A stretch of 64,000 nucleotides of DNA, taken from NCBI GenBank assembly GCA_963776275.1, contig CAVZMI010000023.1:288001-352000 (forward strand), in the 5' to 3' direction. Positions 10,004-17,202 of this stretch are shown piece after piece (position 1 is the stretch's first letter; each line of letters starts with the position of its first letter). Below the pieces are notes generated by a model that made no database searches, was not told the DNA's origin, and worked only from the letters and a program-made list of their open reading frames with translations. A program made the translations under genes and the position numbers. This DNA comes from Ignavibacteriota bacterium (GTDB lineage Bacteria > Bacteroidota > Ignavibacteria > UBA10030 > CAVZMI01).

Positions 10004-12277
10004 ATGAAGAATATCTTTCGTTGTCTGCTCTTTTGCATCCTTGCAGTCCCCGTCGTTGCTCAGGCGGTTGATGGCGAACTGGGCGTTTCCGTCTTTACAA
10101 CAGCGGAGATCACAGGGGCTGTGTCAGGGAGCCCGATTACATACAGGATTCAGTATTACTATAGAGGACTCCTCCCGGGCCCGAATGTCATCCTCACCGA
10201 TGTTGGATCTCCTTTGGTAGTGTTTCAGTCGGCGAGTGTGATGCCGACACGGCAGAACGGGGACACCCTCATCTGGGACCTCGGCACGCTGGACGTGGCG
10301 TTCAACGGTGAAATTGAGGTCATAGATCGGGTGAAGGACGGTCTCACAACAGGGACGAAGATCGAGAATACAGCGCTTATCTACGGAGGAGTCATCGAAG
10401 AGGACTCCACAAATAATGTATGCACCTCCGTTGCGGAGATCGAATCGCCATTTCCGGACATGTTGGATCTAATCACCGGGATTATTGAGACACCGGGACG
10501 CAGCCCGACTTCGATGGCGGAAGAGGGAATGCCCGTAACACTTATTGTCCAGTACTTCAACGACTCCTACTATGATGCGTCGGGCGTTTCTATCACCGAT
10601 ACGCTGTCGCCGAACCTGCAATTCATCTCCGCGGATCCTCCGCCGATATCCGTTTCTGGTCAGGTAGTCACGTGGGACGTAGGAGACGTCCCTTCACTGC
10701 AATTAGGTCAGGTGAAGTTCCTGGTGCGTCCCGTAAGAAGCGGAGAAGCACGTATCATTGCTGGCGTGTACAGCATCTCCGGTGACCGCGACAGTTCCAA
10801 CAATGTCGTCGACTATACATTCGACGTTGTTCCCGTCCTTGAGCCACTCGTCACGAGCCCGGCAGTTACTCCCGGCGAAAGCCGCGACACGTTGGTAACG
10901 ACAGGGAATCCCGTGTTCGAAGGGTTTGCCAGGGCAGGGGCGACGGTGTCGTTATACGAAATAGATAGCGCCGGCTGCAGCGACCCGCTCCTGCAATGCA
11001 ACCCGGTGCTTCTCGGTCAGGGAGTTGCGGATGCAACTCGGCGCTGGAAAATCACTCCTGTGGGAATTACCAACCCCGGCGCGCATCACCTCTGTCTGCA
11101 GGCTGCCTATCAGGGAAGCGTCTCCGTTCCTCTCAATGGGTTCTGGGTCCCATTCATCGTGTATATCGATTCGACGCTTGATTCCGGGGGCTATGACATG
11201 AGCAGCTACACAATTACCGTGGGACACTTCACCTACCATCCTGGCGGATTCGGCGGAAATGTCAGACTTCTTCCCAATCAACCGATCACGATTAGTCTTC
11301 GTGTGAATGTGCCTCCGTTGATAGCGGCGGATACTGCAATATGGAGGTACTACCCACTCCACCTTACGATTTGGAGGTCGGGAGATGTTATAGAAGATAC
11401 GTTATACCCGTCGATAGAACCGGTGGGTCTGCCGCGTGCCGCGCCGAGAGGTGGTTCAGGAAGAGATGCCCTCCTTGTAGTCTTTGACTTTCATTGGCAT
11501 CTGCCATTCCTCAACAATGGTGACGAAGATACAATCGATCCGCCCCCTCCTCCAAAGCCTGGTTGCCCCGGGTGTACGCCCATTCCCCGGCCTCGTCCGA
11601 GACCCACACCGATTGACCCTGCAGGATTTGTCTATGATCTTGATCTTGCGCGAACGGAGTACAAATGGCCCGCTGTTCCCCCTGCTGGAACTCTGATTAC
11701 CACCGCAACCGTGACAGCGTATGAACGCACGGGGGATTCGACGTTCGTGCATTGGCCTGCAGAAGACTGGATGCAGGTCAATCCCCAGATAACCGATGCC
11801 AGTACGGAAGACAGCGTTAAGGTCGAGGGGTACTTCTCGTTCCTTGTCCCGTCAGGACAATACCGCATCAGTTCACAGGCGCCGGGATACTTCGATGGCT
11901 CCAGTGGGATACTCACCGTGATCAACAATCCGATCTACTACAATATCGGCATGCGGCAGGTACCAAAAGGCTCCACCGGGATCCGTAGTGATAGACTGCA
12001 GAGCAATCAGGTACGTAACTATGAGCTTTTCCAGAACTACCCCAACCCCTTTAATCCGAGTACAACAATCCGCTACGAGTTGCCGAAGGCAATTCATGTC
12101 ACTCTCACGGTGTACGATATACTCGGTAGAAAAGTCGCAACACTTGTGAACGGTGTCGAAGAACCTGGATACAAGTCGGTGCACTGGGATGCAAGTGAAA
12201 TGGCCAGCGGAGTCTACTTCTACCGTTTGCAGGCTGGTAATTTAGTTAAGACAAAAAAACTTATTTTACTTAAATAG
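10004..12277 (+). CDS. Secreted protein: two DUF11/Ig-like repeats, Pro-rich linker, carboxypeptidase-regulatory-like domain, T9SS type-A C-terminal domain
   Basis: Signal peptide; ITDTLSPNLQFISA...WDVG repeats; PIDPAGFVYD; LFQNYPNPFNPSTTIRY...KKLILLK. Confidence 0.8.
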   Translation: MKNIFRCLLFCILAVPVVAQAVDGELGVSVFTTAEITGAVSGSPITYRIQYYYRGLLPGPNVILTDVGSPLVVFQSASVMPTRQNGDTLIWDLGTLDVAFNGEIEVIDRVKDGLTTGTKIENTALIYGGVIEEDSTNNVCTSVAEIESPFPDMLDLITGIIETPGRSPTSMAEEGMPVTLIVQYFNDSYYDASGVSITDTLSPNLQFISADPPPISVSGQVVTWDVGDVPSLQLGQVKFLVRPVRSGEARIIAGVYSISGDRDSSNNVVDYTFDVVPVLEPLVTSPAVTPGESRDTLVTTGNPVFEGFARAGATVSLYEIDSAGCSDPLLQCNPVLLGQGVADATRRWKITPVGITNPGAHHLCLQAAYQGSVSVPLNGFWVPFIVYIDSTLDSGGYDMSSYTITVGHFTYHPGGFGGNVRLLPNQPITISLRVNVPPLIAADTAIWRYYPLHLTIWRSGDVIEDTLYPSIEPVGLPRAAPRGGSGRDALLVVFDFHWHLPFLNNGDEDTIDPPPPPKPGCPGCTPIPRPRPRPTPIDPAGFVYDLDLARTEYKWPAVPPAGTLITTATVTAYERTGDSTFVHWPAEDWMQVNPQITDASTEDSVKVEGYFSFLVPSGQYRISSQAPGYFDGSSGILTVINNPIYYNIGMRQVPKGSTGIRSDRLQSNQVRNYELFQNYPNPFNPSTTIRYELPKAIHVTLTVYDILGRKVATLVNGVEEPGYKSVHWDASEMASGVYFYRLQAGNLVKTKKLILLK

Positions 12278-13972
12278 TATCAGATGATACCTACTGTAGG
12301 CTGTAAATAAATTAGTATAACAGACCTCAAGAGTCAAGAGGTAGAAGGTCGATGTACTGCTTGACGACTGAGGGAGTAAGACGAATGATGCGAGATATGA
12401 CATCAGCGTCATCAAATTTAGTAGAAAGTAATTTCACTGATTCAAAATCACGGATATAGCGTTCGACAGCTTCTTTTGAGTGATTAGTTTTCTGACAGAT
12501 GGTCGGAACGAGGTATCCTTTGAGGTAAAGAGCGATAATTTGTTTTTTATGTGTTTGTCCACTGCCAATGAGTTGAATGTTCCCGCGGGTTGGCAGAGGC
12601 CGATTGTAAAGGTTTTGATATTCACGGACATACTCGCCAGCAGTAAGGTCGGTCATGGTCAGAAGTACGGCAAGATCAAGTTGAGAAAGCAAGGCACCCT
12701 GATCGAAGGCTTGTGTGGTCCACCGTTCGATTTTTTTAAGGCGCAACTCACGGTGATGGATCGGAGTGCATAGATCTTCGATGTCAGAATCTGTGATAAT
12801 ATCGAGAATGATTGGTTGCAGTTTGGTCTGGGCCATGGATTTACCCTTTTTCGGATATTCATCGATAGGGACGGCATGCCAGGCCATTTGACCTTGTTTG
12901 AGGAAAGAGTTATCGGTATAGCGGTAGTAGTGCTCAATGAGGGCGAGCAAGTCATCGATAATAGCGGAGGCTGTGATGGTCCCTTTATCATAGCCGTAGT
13001 GATTAAGAAATCGATCTAGGAGAATATGTTTGAGGGATTTGCCTTTGATGCGTTTGTATTTACGCTCAGCAATAACACTGGCAGAGAAGTAGCGGGTATC
13101 GCGGGGTAAGAACTGCAAGTTCTTGGCAATCATAGCGTTAAGCTCCTTTTTTTTCGGTTGTTGGAGCAGCCGTTTCAGTTGAGAGCTTGACGCATGGTGT
13201 TTGAGGAGTTGCAGGTATTCACCAATCAGACGGTGTGAGAATCCGGTAGAGATCCGGATTTGATCGACAGAGAAGTCTTTTTTTCTCAGGAGAATAACCC
13301 GGGCAAAATCTTGGATGTAACGTTTGATGGCAGACTCTGAGTGTTTAGTACGGCGTTCGATATCGGAAAACTGATGACCGGAGAGATAGAGGGCAAGAAT
13401 CTGTGCTTTGTGCGTTTGTCCGCGCCCCATCTCATGGCGCCAGCCCCGGGAAGGAAGGATGATCCCTTTCTTTTTCATCTGGCTCATATCGCGTTTGATG
13501 GTGACGACGCTGCAGGTGAGAATGAAAGCGATATCTTCGTAGGACAGGGCACCGCCTTGATCGATAGCTTCATTTGTGATACGGACGATCTTATGGTGGC
13601 GGAGACCTCGAAGACCTGATTTTTTGTAGACGGGGAGATCTTCCTCAGGCTTATGCAGAGTAAGCTTGACGGAGACCTTTTTACAAAGCGCTAGTGGTTT
13701 ACCGGCGGGTTCGTTCTCATCGACTGCCAGGTAATGAAGTTGACCGGCATGAAGTTCTACTTCTGCATGATTGAGAAAATACTCGCTGATCTGTGTGAAA
13801 TACGCTTCAGCGAGGATCGGGGTGAGATTAAAGTCGCGAGCGATACTTGCAACGATCGACTGCTTAACTGATTTAGACTGTAATCGATTGCTGAGTTGTT
13901 GGTCGTGCATGTGATACCTCCGGCGTATGAATGATGAATGTAACCTTTTTTTGCCTTGGTATCACCTGATAC
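12277..13972 (-). mobile_element. Putative mobile element carrying a DUF1670-like gene pair with palindromic inverted termini
   Basis: GTATCAGATGATACC (12277-12291) and GGTATCACCTGATAC (13958-13972) are 14/15 inverted matches tightly flanking the ORF. Confidence 0.55.
12327..13910 (-). CDS. Tandem DUF1670-like domains; probably two genes (13910-13138 and 13133-12327) joined at an A8 run
   Basis: Two paralogous halves, each with A.DQG..LS..D.A, P(S/T)RG, G.GQTHK, LYL.G, T.HS..A..RYI.DF; internal AAGGAG RBS before ATG at 13133. Family recognised from memory. Confidence 0.7.
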   Translation of the reverse strand: MHDQQLSNRLQSKSVKQSIVASIARDFNLTPILAEAYFTQISEYFLNHAEVELHAGQLHYLAVDENEPAGKPLALCKKVSVKLTLHKPEEDLPVYKKSGLRGLRHHKIVRITNEAIDQGGALSYEDIAFILTCSVVTIKRDMSQMKKKGIILPSRGWRHEMGRGQTHKAQILALYLSGHQFSDIERRTKHSESAIKRYIQDFARVILLRKKDFSVDQIRISTGFSHRLIGEYLQLLKHHASSSQLKRLLQQPKKKELNAMIAKNLQFLPRDTRYFSASVIAERKYKRIKGKSLKHILLDRFLNHYGYDKGTITASAIIDDLLALIEHYYRYTDNSFLKQGQMAWHAVPIDEYPKKGKSMAQTKLQPIILDIITDSDIEDLCTPIHHRELRLKKIERWTTQAFDQGALLSQLDLAVLLTMTDLTAGEYVREYQNLYNRPLPTRGNIQLIGSGQTHKKQIIALYLKGYLVPTICQKTNHSKEAVERYIRDFESVKLLSTKFDDADVISRIIRLTPSVVKQYIDLLPLDS

Positions 13973-14036
13973 AAACTATAAATAACTTCAGCATCCACCG
14001 TATGTCGGGTGAGTGCGGCACACGAATCTGAAAACG

Positions 14037-14068
14037 AAACCGCCGATAGAAATATCGACGGTTTTTTT
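14037..14068. terminator. Intrinsic terminator hairpin
   Basis: AAACCGCCGATA-GAAA-TATCGACGGTTTTTTT. Confidence 0.55.
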
Positions 14069-14135
14069 ATTAGCAATCATTAGCAAAAGTTTCCCACCCT
14101 CTGAACAACTACAAGGTGATGGTCACCACGGACTG

Positions 14136-14789
14136 TCATAAGACGCGGAACTTCACACCACAACCTGCATAGATGTTTATGATACGCCAGCTTACATCCG
14201 ATTGTACTTTTGTTAGTCCGTATGCAAATGTCACCTGAGGAGTAAGATCGATATCCCTTGCTATAGGAATCTCATACCCTGCTCCCACTTTTAATGCAAA
14301 CCGCGCCTGCATATCTTTTAATGAGCCTTTTTGTTTACCATAATCCTGACCCTGGATCGTTGTCGAAACCTCGTATGAACCCTCGACATTGATACCAAAC
14401 GATGGTCCAGCAATAAAATACAATCCACTGCGCTGTAGTTTTAATCTGAATAAAGCGTCGATAGTAAAATATCCTACACTTGATGAGTAATCTTGTGAGT
14501 AGTTACCATAATAAGGATCAGTCCCGCTTTTTGAATAGGAACCGCTCATATTATCGTAAAAAATTAGGCGAGTTAAAATTCCAATTGTTGGCGAAAATGA
14601 CATATCTGCTTCTCCGCCTATCATAAATCCTAAACCTGTACCTGTCTCCTGTATATCAGATCCGGAATGAATGTTGAAATTAAATCCCGTCACAGGTCCT
14701 ATAGCCATGTGGAATTGGGCTAAGCTTGGTGTTGCCGCCATGCACAAGCCAATAAGCAGAGCTAGAACAAATAGTGTAATTTTTTTCAT
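14136..14789 (-). CDS. Outer-membrane beta-barrel (PorT/OmpA-like) protein
   Basis: Signal peptide, alternating beta strands, YFIAGPSFG, GAGYE, GVKF near the C-terminus. Confidence 0.75.
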   Translation of the reverse strand: MKKITLFVLALLIGLCMAATPSLAQFHMAIGPVTGFNFNIHSGSDIQETGTGLGFMIGGEADMSFSPTIGILTRLIFYDNMSGSYSKSGTDPYYGNYSQDYSSSVGYFTIDALFRLKLQRSGLYFIAGPSFGINVEGSYEVSTTIQGQDYGKQKGSLKDMQARFALKVGAGYEIPIARDIDLTPQVTFAYGLTKVQSDVSWRIINIYAGCGVKFRVL

Positions 14790-15063: not shown

Positions 15064-17202
15064 CTACTTCATCAGGACCATCTTCCTCGTAACGGCCATT
15101 TCCGGTGCCCCTTTCTGTGCGATTACCAAACGATAAAAATAGATACCGCTTGATACATTATTGCCATTCCGATCCATTCCATTCGACCGTATAATTCCCG
15201 GGAACAAGATCGCCGTCGGCAAGTGACGTTACAAATTCACCCAGAACGTTGAAGACATCAAGATTTACCTTTGCAGCACGCGGGAGTGAGAACCTGATAT
15301 TCGTCGATTGATTGAACGGATTGGGGTAGTTCTGGTTCAATTCGAACGATCCCGGTACTTCCTGATCGGCCATCTTAATTCCTGTCAAAGTAGTCAGAGA
15401 TGCCCGGAGGATTGCAACGGCATACTTCGCGTTATGAATACCCATGCTGCCATCATTCTTTACAAAGTAGTAGTTCCAGATTGCGGGATAGTTGTTCGGA
15501 TTGCTTTTTATGTTCATCGAATCTTTCTTGAAATCAGCCAGCAATGTCACCGGTTCACCATCGGCACCCTTTGGCAAGATCGCTTTTAGCTGATCTAGTA
15601 GACCCTGAATCTCAGCCTGAACGCTCTCTATTTTTCCGTTGCCATCGTAATCATATCCTGCCCGTATATCTTCGAACGACTGGATATTTCCATGGCATTG
15701 ACGGCATGCCGTGATCTTATCGACTCCGGCACTATCCATCGACATTTCGTGGTCAGAATTCGTTGCCCTGTAAGCCATGTGACATGTGACGCAGCCATTC
15801 TCCAATCCTTGATGTGTTCCCAAACCTGTGAGGTCGAGTCCAAATTCATATGCATTTGCACCTAGGTACATGTCGGCCTGTGTTCCATAATGAGGATAGA
15901 AACGATCGCGCCATGTTTGTTGCTGACTTGCGATTCGGGTCATTGCATTTTCACGGCCGCGGTGACAGTTCATGCAGAGTCGACCCGTTCCCCCAATACC
16001 GGCCGGCGGCACATAACCGTTTGCAAGAGAATCAAGAGAGACAGTCCGTAACTGTACCGGATTCGCCCCACTATGCGGATCATGACATACCTGGCAGGAG
16101 ATCGATTCCGTTACAACGACTCTGGAATAATCGGGAGATTTTTTGTTCGCAGCATACGCGATAAAAGACGACGGATTATGACAAGGATAACAGCTTGAGC
16201 GTGATGCCTCCTCGCTACTCAACGGCATCGTCGCATGTGTGGAGGCCTTCCAGTATTGTCCGATATTGTGATGCGGCGGCGCATCATGGCATTGCATACA
16301 GACACTCGCGTCCATGGATGCTTCTATATACTTTTTGTTGCCGGTCCTCTTATGATCATTAGCCGTCCGTGGCAACTTTCGCATCCGATTTTAGCGACCG
16401 GTAGTAATTGTGGATAATTTGTGTTGAGGTTACTCCAGACAGTCGTATCACCATTATGAATGAGAAACTCACCACCCCCCGCACTTCTCAAGCCTTTATA
16501 CCATGTGGTATCCCAGCCGGATATTTTTGCCAGATATCCAAAGTTTCCATTATCCGCATCTTTATTATACCCGGTCGTGTGACAACTGATGCAAAATGGT
16601 GCATAGACTCCATCACCAAAGGCATTGACTTCGATTTGACCCGTCAGAGCCCTATGGAACATCGTTGCATGAGCGGTTTGAGGATACGCCTGTAACTTTC
16701 CATCCGGATAGATGTAGTTATGGCAGATACATGTATACTCATCGACGAATCCGGAATATATACTCGCATATAATGTATCTGAAGCCGAAATCGAGCCATT
16801 AACGGTGACGGTTACAATGTATCTACCAACGACATCCGCTGTAAAACCGGTGTTCATCTGGTTTGTATTATCAAGGGTAACGGCAGATCCGACCGGTCCG
16901 GATATCATCCATGCAAACGATGTTGCCGCTGTTGCTCCAGAACCAGTCGTATCGACCGACAAATATGCTTTTTCGCCCTTCCCTATAGCATGCAACCCTC
17001 TCGATGTCGGAGCCGATGAGGTCAACCCAAGGCTCGCCTTATTGCCGGGTGTGACACCGATCCTCTTAACCTTTACCGTCTGGGCCATGACACTTCCCAT
17101 CAAACAACCCAAGAGGAAGAAAGTACAAACCGGTACCCCTCTTCTCATATTAATTCCTACTGTCGCTTTGAATTTACTAATCCCACGGCCGCCCACACTC
17201 AA
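15064..17202 (-). CDS. Multiheme c-type cytochrome with PKD-like N-terminus and T9SS/FlgD-type C-terminal domain; two frameshifts (near 16360 and 15170)
   Basis: Eight CxxCH motifs (CISCH, CESCH, CMQCH, CYPCH, CQVCH, CMNCH, CVTCH, CRQCH) plus one CICH; LNQNYPNPFN; shifted tail NVSSGIYFYRL...RKMVLMK ends at 15064. Confidence 0.8.

Follow-up and report, generated by a model that had tools for sequence, protein, structure and literature searches.

We examined a 64,000-nucleotide stretch of an Ignavibacteriota genome (contig CAVZMI010000023.1, positions 288,001 to 352,000; hereafter the window, on which all coordinates are given) and in particular a unit at 12272-13979, whose only genes are a pair of ancient DUF1670 paralogues and which is probably an insertion-sequence-like mobile element belonging to a large undescribed family. 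To its left, on the plus strand, lies an open reading frame (ORF) at 10004..12277 that encodes a DUF11 domain and a Por_Secre_tail domain, the sorting domain of type IX secretion (E 2.6e-10). Inspection of the sequence shows two 14-bp palindromes, GTATCAGATGATAC at 12277-12290 and GTATCACCTGATAC at 13959-13972, in which GTATCA and TGATAC arms enclose the centres GA and CC, respectively. The pattern GTATCANNTGATAC, with at most one mismatch, is matched twice in the window against 0.13 matches expected, and two or more matches occurred in 0 of 100 shuffles; exact palindrome matches number three in the whole 3,698,693-bp assembly, and two of these are the element ends. As inverted repeats the ends are 14/15 identical (GTATCAG[A/G]TGATACC). 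G12277 is both the first base of the left palindrome and the final base of the TAG stop of the upstream ORF. Between the palindromes there is a single ORF of 527 amino acids on the minus strand (12327..13910). Its conserved leader (13911..13958, minus strand) runs from the palindrome to the ATG and contains a half-site, GGTATCAC, at 13911-13918, directly 5' of the start codon. A preliminary description of this DNA had given the same palindromes, repeat identity and shared stop-codon base, and these hold; the half-site, which it placed between the ribosome-binding site and the ATG, is there but in fact overlaps the GGAGG of the ribosome-binding site.

The 527-aa protein matches PF07900 (DUF1670) in two stretches, with 382.5 bits against a cut-off of 25 (E 6.7e-115), and a scan of the genome returned PF07900 scores of 198 and 189 bits. 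The first unit, A, is encoded by 13134..13910 and the second, B, corresponding to the second Pfam stretch, by 12327..13133, both on the minus strand. They are full-length paralogues (hhalign probability 100, 28% identity), and A-type and B-type orthologues are found in every lineage examined. The unit thus holds nothing but a DUF1670-like paralogue pair, as had been proposed, although here the pair forms one ORF and not two genes. Among 59 distinct elements, two ORFs (A usually about 257 aa and B about 268 aa) are present in 56 and one ORF in only three (the window, L047 and L049); ORF B lies in the -1 frame in 41 elements and in the +1 frame in 15. In the window a run of eight A residues (13147..13154 on the minus strand, T8 on the plus strand) marks the junction between A and B. 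Across the elements this run is A7 in 23, A8 in 13, A9 in 12 and A10 in one, and shorter or absent in the rest (A5-A10 in relatives). Fused and split copies co-exist in two genomes (G061 and G063), and one public contig carries an extra T at 13146-13154 that would split the ORF of the window. Judging from these alignments, A and B are normally separate and a shorter A-run fuses them here, the run clearly being a hot spot of length variation.

We placed the ends of the element by comparison with a sister genome (G001) of the same genus, which is about 97% identical to the genome of the window (G000). On the left, the sister orthologue of the upstream gene (gene A, 97% identical) matches the window through 12276 and ends in AAATAA. 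On the right, a second sister gene, gene B, which encodes fn3 and Por_Secre_tail domains, reads CTTATG and then, across the junction, AAATAACTTCAGC; homology with the window restarts exactly at 13980, after the 7-mer AAACTAT (13973..13979, plus strand), and from there the window matches the end of gene B and the sequence downstream of it at 97%. The 7-mer itself is absent from gene B. Because this comparison fixes both junctions, the element extends over 12272-13979 (1708 bp), with true junctions 5 nt (left) and 7 nt (right) outside the palindromes and with zero duplicated bases. We therefore retain the earlier proposal of an undescribed mobile element containing only a DUF1670 pair, but move its ends outward from the palindromes to 12272 and 13979; that no target duplication is visible agrees with the flanks as well as with the sister genome. 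The left terminal 5-mer, AAATA (12272..12276, plus strand), together with G12277 gives gene A (10004..12271) its last Lys codon and its TAG stop, and AAATAA at 13980..13985 (plus strand), in the flank, is the displaced original Lys-stop of a type IX secretion gene.

The same architecture recurs across the family. The loci examined numbered 99, namely the window, 18 of 19 GTDB loci (L061, a partial match of 59%, was omitted) and 80 metagenome loci. Both palindromes, 1450-1800 bp apart, are kept in 62 of the 99, which answers the check suggested in the preliminary description, that DUF1670 pairs have conserved flanking palindromes; the remaining 37 are mostly truncated contigs or members of other lineages. 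Read in gene orientation, all 62 loci consist of a flank ending in a 5-mer, the first junction, a 7-mer, a palindrome, the interior, the other palindrome, another 5-mer, the second junction and the other flank. The palindromes have 6-bp arms and a free 2-nt centre, and one of them is separated from its junction by 5 nt, the other by 7 nt. The 7-mer is TTAGTTA in 18 loci, TAGGTTA in 15, ATAGTTA in 13 and another word in 16; it is constant among copies in one genome while their flanks differ, and so belongs to the element. The 5-mer outside it varies between copies in one genome, and so belongs to the flank. In the 61 loci where it could be read, this target 5-mer is TATTT (25), TACTT (15), CATTT (8), CACTT (6), TATCG (3), CATCG (2), CACCG (1) or TTTCA (1), which is YAYTT or YAYCG in 60 of 61 and always on the 7-mer side. 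The element-side 5-mer at the opposite end is TATTT in 54 of 61 (the reverse complement of AAATA in the window), TATCT in three, TATCG in three and TATTC in one. On the opposite strand, the invariant end AAATA followed by the G of the palindrome spells Lys-TAG, and the variable flank word, AAATA or AAGTA, followed by A spells the original Lys-TAA. No target duplication was found in these loci: in 36 of 61 the left and the element-side 5-mers are different words, the flanks share no repeat, and target and element share at most 2 nt at the junction.

These junctions constrain how the element could be inserted. A model with TA duplication, as in Tc1/IS630-like elements, is out, since the 7-mer is missing from gene B of the sister genome and is constant among copies; so is a symmetric staggered cut with a 2-nt duplication, since the first two nucleotides of the 7-mer are not repeated past the other end. 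DDE-type staggered insertion and the 6-8-bp overlap of tyrosine recombinases both conflict with the junction pattern. The pattern fits cleavage immediately 3' of similar 5-mers on one strand, which would follow an HUH-like logic, and it fits exchange across a core of at most 2 nt as well. In all six Arg-type cases the target and element 5-mers change together at positions 4-5 (TT versus CG), which would fit a 2-nt core but also other models. We looked in the 7-mer and 5' of the far palindrome for a DNA guide that differs between Lys-type and Arg-type targets, and saw none. When the ends were folded as single strands, the energies (-1.7 to -2.5 kcal/mol, z -0.5 to +0.2) were no better than those of shuffles, and for this reason we favor double-stranded binding sites over hairpins of the IS608 kind.

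The insertion point lies, in one orientation only, between the last-but-one codon and the final Lys codon (Arg in a sublineage) of a particular class of genes. Of the 61 two-ended loci other than the window, we scanned the flanks of 41, after dropping three exact duplicates and 17 loci with an open flank shorter than 40 aa (eight of these 17 end in a tail resembling ...KK.x.LLK, and two are the tandem cases L128 and L163 described below). Por_Secre_tail was found at E <= 1e-3 in 34 of the 41 flank ORFs, 32 of them above the curated cut-off. Five of the misses are fragments of 43-63 aa with typical tails, and two are clearly other proteins, a DUF4287-like protein ending in PPLK and a TPR protein ending in GLEK (L043 and L157). 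As far as the flanking sequence goes, these two insertions, into genes that are not secretion cargo yet end in ...LK or ...EK plus stop, show the lower limit of target recognition. The target logo, built from 54 upstream and 52 downstream flanks, reads ..AC.AAGAAg.Tg.T.cT..Tg before the insertion point and AAaTAA after it, beyond which the sequence is random. In the genome of the window a crude pattern screen found about 91 sorting-domain-like gene ends, 25 of which end in Lys-TAA; these amount to about 0.4% of the 6196 AARTAA sites. As such sites are so rarely the ends of such genes, the choice of site must read the coding tail too. We also noted that 15 of the approximately 91 sorting-domain-like ORF ends in this genome finish in AAATAG, the form that the element creates.

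The form of the element end goes with that of the target. All six elements ending in TATCG or TATCT occupy Arg-type targets (xAxCG), and the adjoining tails end in ...LLR. If each insertion rebuilds the target, tandem arrays are to be expected, and two metagenome contigs (L128, 76-3615, and L163, 872-4460) carry an element with GTATCA-type ends and one with GGACA-type ends head to tail at one gene end. In both, the displaced original codon and stop lie beyond the two elements, and in L163 the rebuilt codons are all Arg.

Copies within genomes are nearly identical, and their surroundings are not. One genome (G061) has three copies that are 1699/1711 to 1707/1711 identical and another (G063) two copies that are 1708/1709 identical; several genomes have two or three copies each, with 99.3-99.9% identity among copies within one genome, and the 60 nt past the left 5-mer match at only 13-19 of 60 positions. 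In a more distant lineage (G056), two copies on different contigs, 98.4% identical over 1943 bp, stand beside two different secretion genes. The distribution is patchy: elements were found in 12 of 61 genomes of the same order and in 9 of 301 genomes sampled across the phylum, all nine in the class of the window. Decayed copies exist, such as one with seven stops that still keeps both ends (G045). With the N-terminal half of the protein (P0001) as query, 377 of 746 candidates qualified as relatives at E <= 1e-5, and an exhaustive search of public data gave 1259 DUF1670 cluster representatives (50% identity) at E <= 1e-3. Nearly all of the 120 relatives listed are separate proteins of 257-261 aa, and the longest contig found for each is mostly only 1-3 kb, as would be expected for a gene that sits in a repeat. 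Of the features generally expected of insertion sequences, near-identical copies with sharp common ends are thus present, whereas no recognized transposase catalytic domain (DDE, DEDD, HUH, Ser or Tyr) was found at E <= 0.1 and there is no target duplication.

The third exact palindrome of the assembly, on contig C10 (46689-46736; about 1473-1520 of locus L002), is a left-type solo copy with a counterpart in the sister genome (G001:C8:130317-130364, L186). The sorting-domain tail in front of it (...VYFYRLHAGSYTQTKKLVLLK-stop) is decayed. The copy matches window 12249-12296 at 92% identity and retains, identical to the window copy, the 5-mer, the palindrome and 6 nt from inside the element. From this composition the site looks like an old truncated remnant common to both genomes. 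In the genome of the window it is the sole solo copy that might have qualified as the empty site with a single palindrome that the preliminary description predicted, and that prediction is thus not supported. Solo palindromes in three further genomes (G062, G063 and G065) have no element-like context.

Distant DUF1670 pairs follow the same plan with palindromes of their own. TGCCA-NN-TGGCA is found in two genomes (G003 and G012), (A)GGACA-TT-TGTCC(T) in loci L176-L182, at 38% identity, and an imperfect GGCCA/GGACA version in G056; in the last two lineages the genes run in the opposite direction with respect to the 5-mer and 7-mer ends. In G061 all six GTATCA palindromes of the genome are the ends of its three elements, and in five genomes scanned no other type of gene was flanked by GTATCA palindromes. 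To judge by these loci, the palindromes are a family trait that changes together with the protein lineage. In sum, comparison of assembled sequences shows precise, oriented, duplication-free junctions, the target, the rebuilt codon and stop, and the link between lineage and palindrome.

ORF A is under purifying selection (pN/pS, the ratio of non-synonymous to synonymous polymorphism, is 0.11-0.23 in seven pairs), and in 81 sequences compared R155 never varies and conservation reaches 90% or more at G156, H167, H190 and Y198. The AlphaFold model of A (predicted local distance difference test, pLDDT, 88.7) begins with an N-terminal domain in which three helices are accompanied by a beta arm of two strands, whose Pro/Gly tip is conserved. 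A winged helix follows at residues 97-162, similar to NiaR, LexA and DeoR-like proteins (Z up to 6.3), and residues 165-250 form two helix-turn-helix (HTH) units resembling TrpR-like, Mu C, resolvase and Sin DNA-binding domains (Z 5-6). In a profile search of the PDB, the PxRG motif falls on the wing of winged-helix regulators; the second HTH starts with THK and has HS-x6-Y as its recognition helix. Modeled alone (96 residues, pLDDT 72.9), the N-terminal domain has HU/IHF chains at the head of the lists of both fold aligners used, although it has no PF00216 match. An IHF-like heterodimer of A and B, which would explain why the pair is always kept, is offered on the basis of these models as a lead and not as a finding. 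PADLOC and PHROGs gave matches at the HTH level only, the ESM Atlas gave only HTH clusters for the homolog P0023 (0.78-0.81), and Foldseek returned nothing at E <= 0.001 for the full model of A; catalytic folds, tyrosine recombinases among them, are not listed in the fold searches with the full model or the N-terminal domain, but are not excluded by this. Among the relatives, some longer proteins (P0126, P0130, P0131 and P0142, 930-952 aa) have three DUF1670 units, in others, of about 500 aa, the A-type unit seems to stand in second and not in first place, and one JGI record labels a close homolog as a transposase.

Based on these folds and junctions, it seems possible that A and B form a pseudo-symmetric pair, each with a possibly HU/IHF-like N-terminal domain, a winged helix and two HTH units, and that this pair binds and probably bends the palindromes, pairs the ends and selects the target. 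The sequences show that the element-end 5-mer and the first base of the palindrome re-create a Lys or Arg codon and TAG, so that the host gene stays intact, and that the original Lys-stop is displaced to the far side of the element. The half-site over the ribosome-binding site may serve autoregulation; the GGTATCA half-site at the start codon is kept in 48 of 59 distinct elements, a conservation that fits such a role. For cutting and joining, the candidates are a cryptic activity of A and B themselves or a host enzyme that they recruit.

Three other explanations have to be weighed, and the first, although in our view rather improbable, is the strongest of them. It holds that the element is non-autonomous and depends for its movement on an enzyme encoded elsewhere, whether an HUH Y1 transposase (IS200/IS605 or REP-associated), an IS110-type DEDD transposase or a host recombinase, A and B being no more than end-binding, architectural or regulatory passengers. 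A and B do show DNA-binding folds only, and the insertion rule, with a short word, fixed orientation, no duplication and subterminal palindromes, recalls HUH elements. Because Y1_Tnp genes are present in the genome of the window (nine matches) and in four of five multi-copy genomes, help in trans retains some plausibility, and in the sister genome an IS110-family transposase gene directly follows the same gene-end junction. Against this stand the absence of any other gene type between these palindromes in the genomes scanned, the extra solo palindromes being without gene context, the shift of palindrome sequence with the DUF1670 lineage, the strong purifying selection on A, the failure of single-stranded ends to fold better than shuffles, and one genome (G065, an incomplete assembly) that has elements and no Y1_Tnp match.

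A second explanation develops the preliminary description, which had proposed a two-subunit recombinase or transposase acting on its own palindromic ends: the two units would form an enzyme like a tyrosine recombinase, with R, H-K and H-S...Y as catalytic residues and with exchange at the 2-nt centres of the palindromes. The conservation of R155, H167, H190 and Y198 would suit such an enzyme, as would the palindrome centres, which show free variation and in many pairs mirror each other as exact inverted copies (CC/GG in 16 of 62 pairs, AA/TT in 15, GG/CC in seven and TA/TA in two), and the HTH units do bear a weak likeness to the resolvase and Sin DNA-binding domains (Z 5.4 and 5.1; HTH_7 with 20.8 bits, below the cut-off). 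Nevertheless, the junctions are displaced outward from the palindromes by 5 and 7 nt, which rules against crossover within them and largely refutes the model, and 22 of 62 centre pairs are not inverted copies. The motifs that had been likened to the XerD catalytic tail, and also to an ordinary HTH, are indeed conserved in the 81 sequences, but they map to DNA-binding elements: R-G lies in the wing, and H-S...Y lies in the recognition helix of the second HTH. Neither Phage_integrase nor Resolvase is matched at E <= 0.1, and we regard this explanation as very unlikely. Least credible of all is that the locus is not mobile and merely encodes two ordinary HTH regulators whose operators flank the gene, since, for all that every recognizable domain is of a regulator type and a half-site sits at the start codon, this is contradicted by near-identical copies at unrelated loci, sharp conserved boundaries and tandem insertions, as well as by pseudogenized copies and a patchy distribution.

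The insertion-sequence-like element that we prefer can be compared with several known systems. Elements of the IS200/IS605 family, such as IS608 and ISDra2, are small, have subterminal palindromes and insert in one orientation beside a short conserved word without target duplication. The DUF1670 element shares this oriented insertion beside a short word without duplication, and its junctions likewise lie at unequal distances outside two palindromes. It differs in having no HUH/Y1 transposase (PF01797 has no match in the 527-aa protein), in its short 6-bp-arm palindromes, which as single strands fold no better than shuffles, in targeting some 20 nt of coding sequence together with the Lys-stop, against 4-5 nt, and in an end that mimics and rebuilds the target. 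With the IS110/IS1111 (DEDD) elements it shares site-specific insertion with no or minimal duplication, and one member of that group sits at the same gene-end junction in the sister genome; its proteins, however, lack DEDD_Tnp_IS110 and Transposase_20, and its ends are twin palindromes. Two consecutive ORFs, the second mostly in the -1 frame, an A-rich run at their junction and the occurrence of fused and split forms are reminiscent of IS1 and IS3, but here both ORFs encode DNA-binding paralogues, neither of them a DDE enzyme, and the run is missing in some members.

Other likenesses concern the proteins. A paralogous pair and an N-terminal domain for which HU/IHF chains head the lists of two aligners, with scores below significance, recall the DNABII proteins IHF and HU, and the winged helix and two HTH units that follow recall the architectural binders of that type used in recombination; the DUF1670 proteins, in contrast to IHF and HU, are products of the mobile element and specific to it. 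There is a weak likeness to the bipartite N-terminal HTH of Tc1/mariner-IS630 transposases (NF033545 with 18 bits against 100, HTH_Tnp_Tc3_1 and HTH_23/28/29), from which the element differs in having no DDE domain and no TA duplication and in that the 7-mer next to the palindrome belongs to the element. Tyrosine recombinases are set apart by the lack of a PF00589 match at E <= 0.1 and of a shared 6-8 bp overlap, and serine recombinases by the lack of a PF00239 match, with only HTH_7 found at 20.8 bits, below its cut-off of 23.8.

Several observations weigh against the reading that we prefer. No catalytic family of recombinases or transposases was found in Pfam or NCBIfam at E <= 0.1, where matches were of HTH type only; the PDB profile search gave HTH and winged-helix matches only, and none of 12 longer relatives scanned is fused to an enzyme domain. 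We infer, rather than show, that A and B bind the palindromes. The likeness of the N-terminal domain to HU/IHF is weak (IHF at Z 4.5 with a root-mean-square deviation of 15.2 Å over 80 residues, HU38 at a Foldseek E of 0.16), and against 24 HU sequences from relatives hhalign gave a probability of 19.7% over 29 columns, in the expected helix register. Programmed frameshifting is not established, given that 9 of 59 elements have a short A-run or none (49 have A7-A10) and that ORF B lies in the +1 frame in 15. An unoccupied orthologous site was not found by synteny around L048 (25 relatives of G061) or L050 (25 relatives of G063); these searches returned orthologues of one flank only (the orthologue of the L048 neighbor in G066 has a different tail, ending in LILR-TAA), and the sister-genome comparison is the nearest substitute. 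Excision or circle joints were not found in the contigs of four public runs over 11600-14600, with shares of at most 0.28, a search of contigs only that is silent on absence.

The genome of the window, moreover, has a single assembled copy of the element. Its orthologue of the sister gene B is found on a different contig (C24:1-1463, 96.4% over 1463 nt), which stops exactly at the insertion point of the element, ...ATGAAATA (...CTTATGAAATA). The path from gene A through the element into the sequence that follows gene B may thus owe its local join to the collapse of two repeat copies during assembly, or to a mixed population. Such a caveat touches only the local history, and not the definition of the element.

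The surroundings of the element have further features. The 63 nt past the displaced Lys-stop (13980-14042) are found twice in contig C3 of the sister genome (97% and 94%), each time after a sorting-domain tail, and may represent a repeated 3' untranslated element; they match no Rfam family. In the sister genome (G001:C2, L029 3751-4904), an IS110-family transposase gene (DEDD_Tnp_IS110, E 8.9e-30, plus Transposase_20) begins right after the ...AAATAA end of the gene A orthologue, and in contigs of one run (X4) a second, similar AAATGCAATTGC... end lies behind another gene tail. The ends of sorting-domain genes may thus be a landing site for a second kind of element. To the right of the DUF1670 element, the window encodes an outer-membrane beta-barrel protein, multihaem cytochromes and fmt. 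One of the multihaem cytochrome ORFs (15064-16384, minus strand) has only the first part of a Por_Secre_tail, and the remainder of the tail (...SGIYFYRL...TRKMVLMK) lies in another frame at 15067-15222, which is a frameshift or an assembly error. Rfam gave nothing above threshold at 11500-14600, and a promoter and terminator scan of the window was no better than shuffles. The preliminary description took the left neighbor for a cassette at which an attC would be expected; this has no basis in the data, as the neighbor is a type IX secretion cargo gene, and there is no sign of an integron cassette among the neighbors, although no search for attC or IntI was made.

In the library searched we found no paper that mentions DUF1670 or PF07900, and among papers on insertion sequences, type IX secretion and new insertion sequence families no title or opening of an abstract describes such an element. 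We rate it as a new family-level variant of insertion sequences. As no catalytic domain is recognized, its movement would call for a transposition chemistry that is new or for a host enzyme hijacked in a new way. A more tentative possibility is that A and B represent a new class of transposase or recombinase, made up only of an IHF-like dimerization and bending domain, a winged helix and HTH units, or, equally novel, a sequence-specific IHF-like bender that reprograms a host enzyme. If so, this class would insert seamlessly, in a fixed orientation and without duplication, at the last codon of genes for type IX secretion cargo, and, if the chemistry were worked out, would offer a compact site-specific insertion system.

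For the family and its hosts, the finding gives DUF1670, a domain of unknown function, a concrete setting as the sole cargo of a widespread insertion-sequence-like element. What the element targets, over about 20 nt, is the 3' end conserved across a whole class of genes (type IX secretion cargo), which provides roughly a hundred safe landing sites per genome, and because the element end rebuilds the last codon and the stop, insertion would be harmless, the site re-usable and tandem arrays possible. Such elements explain many of the contig breaks in metagenome assemblies of Ignavibacteria-like bacteria, and they could shuffle or tag the ends of secretion genes in these organisms.

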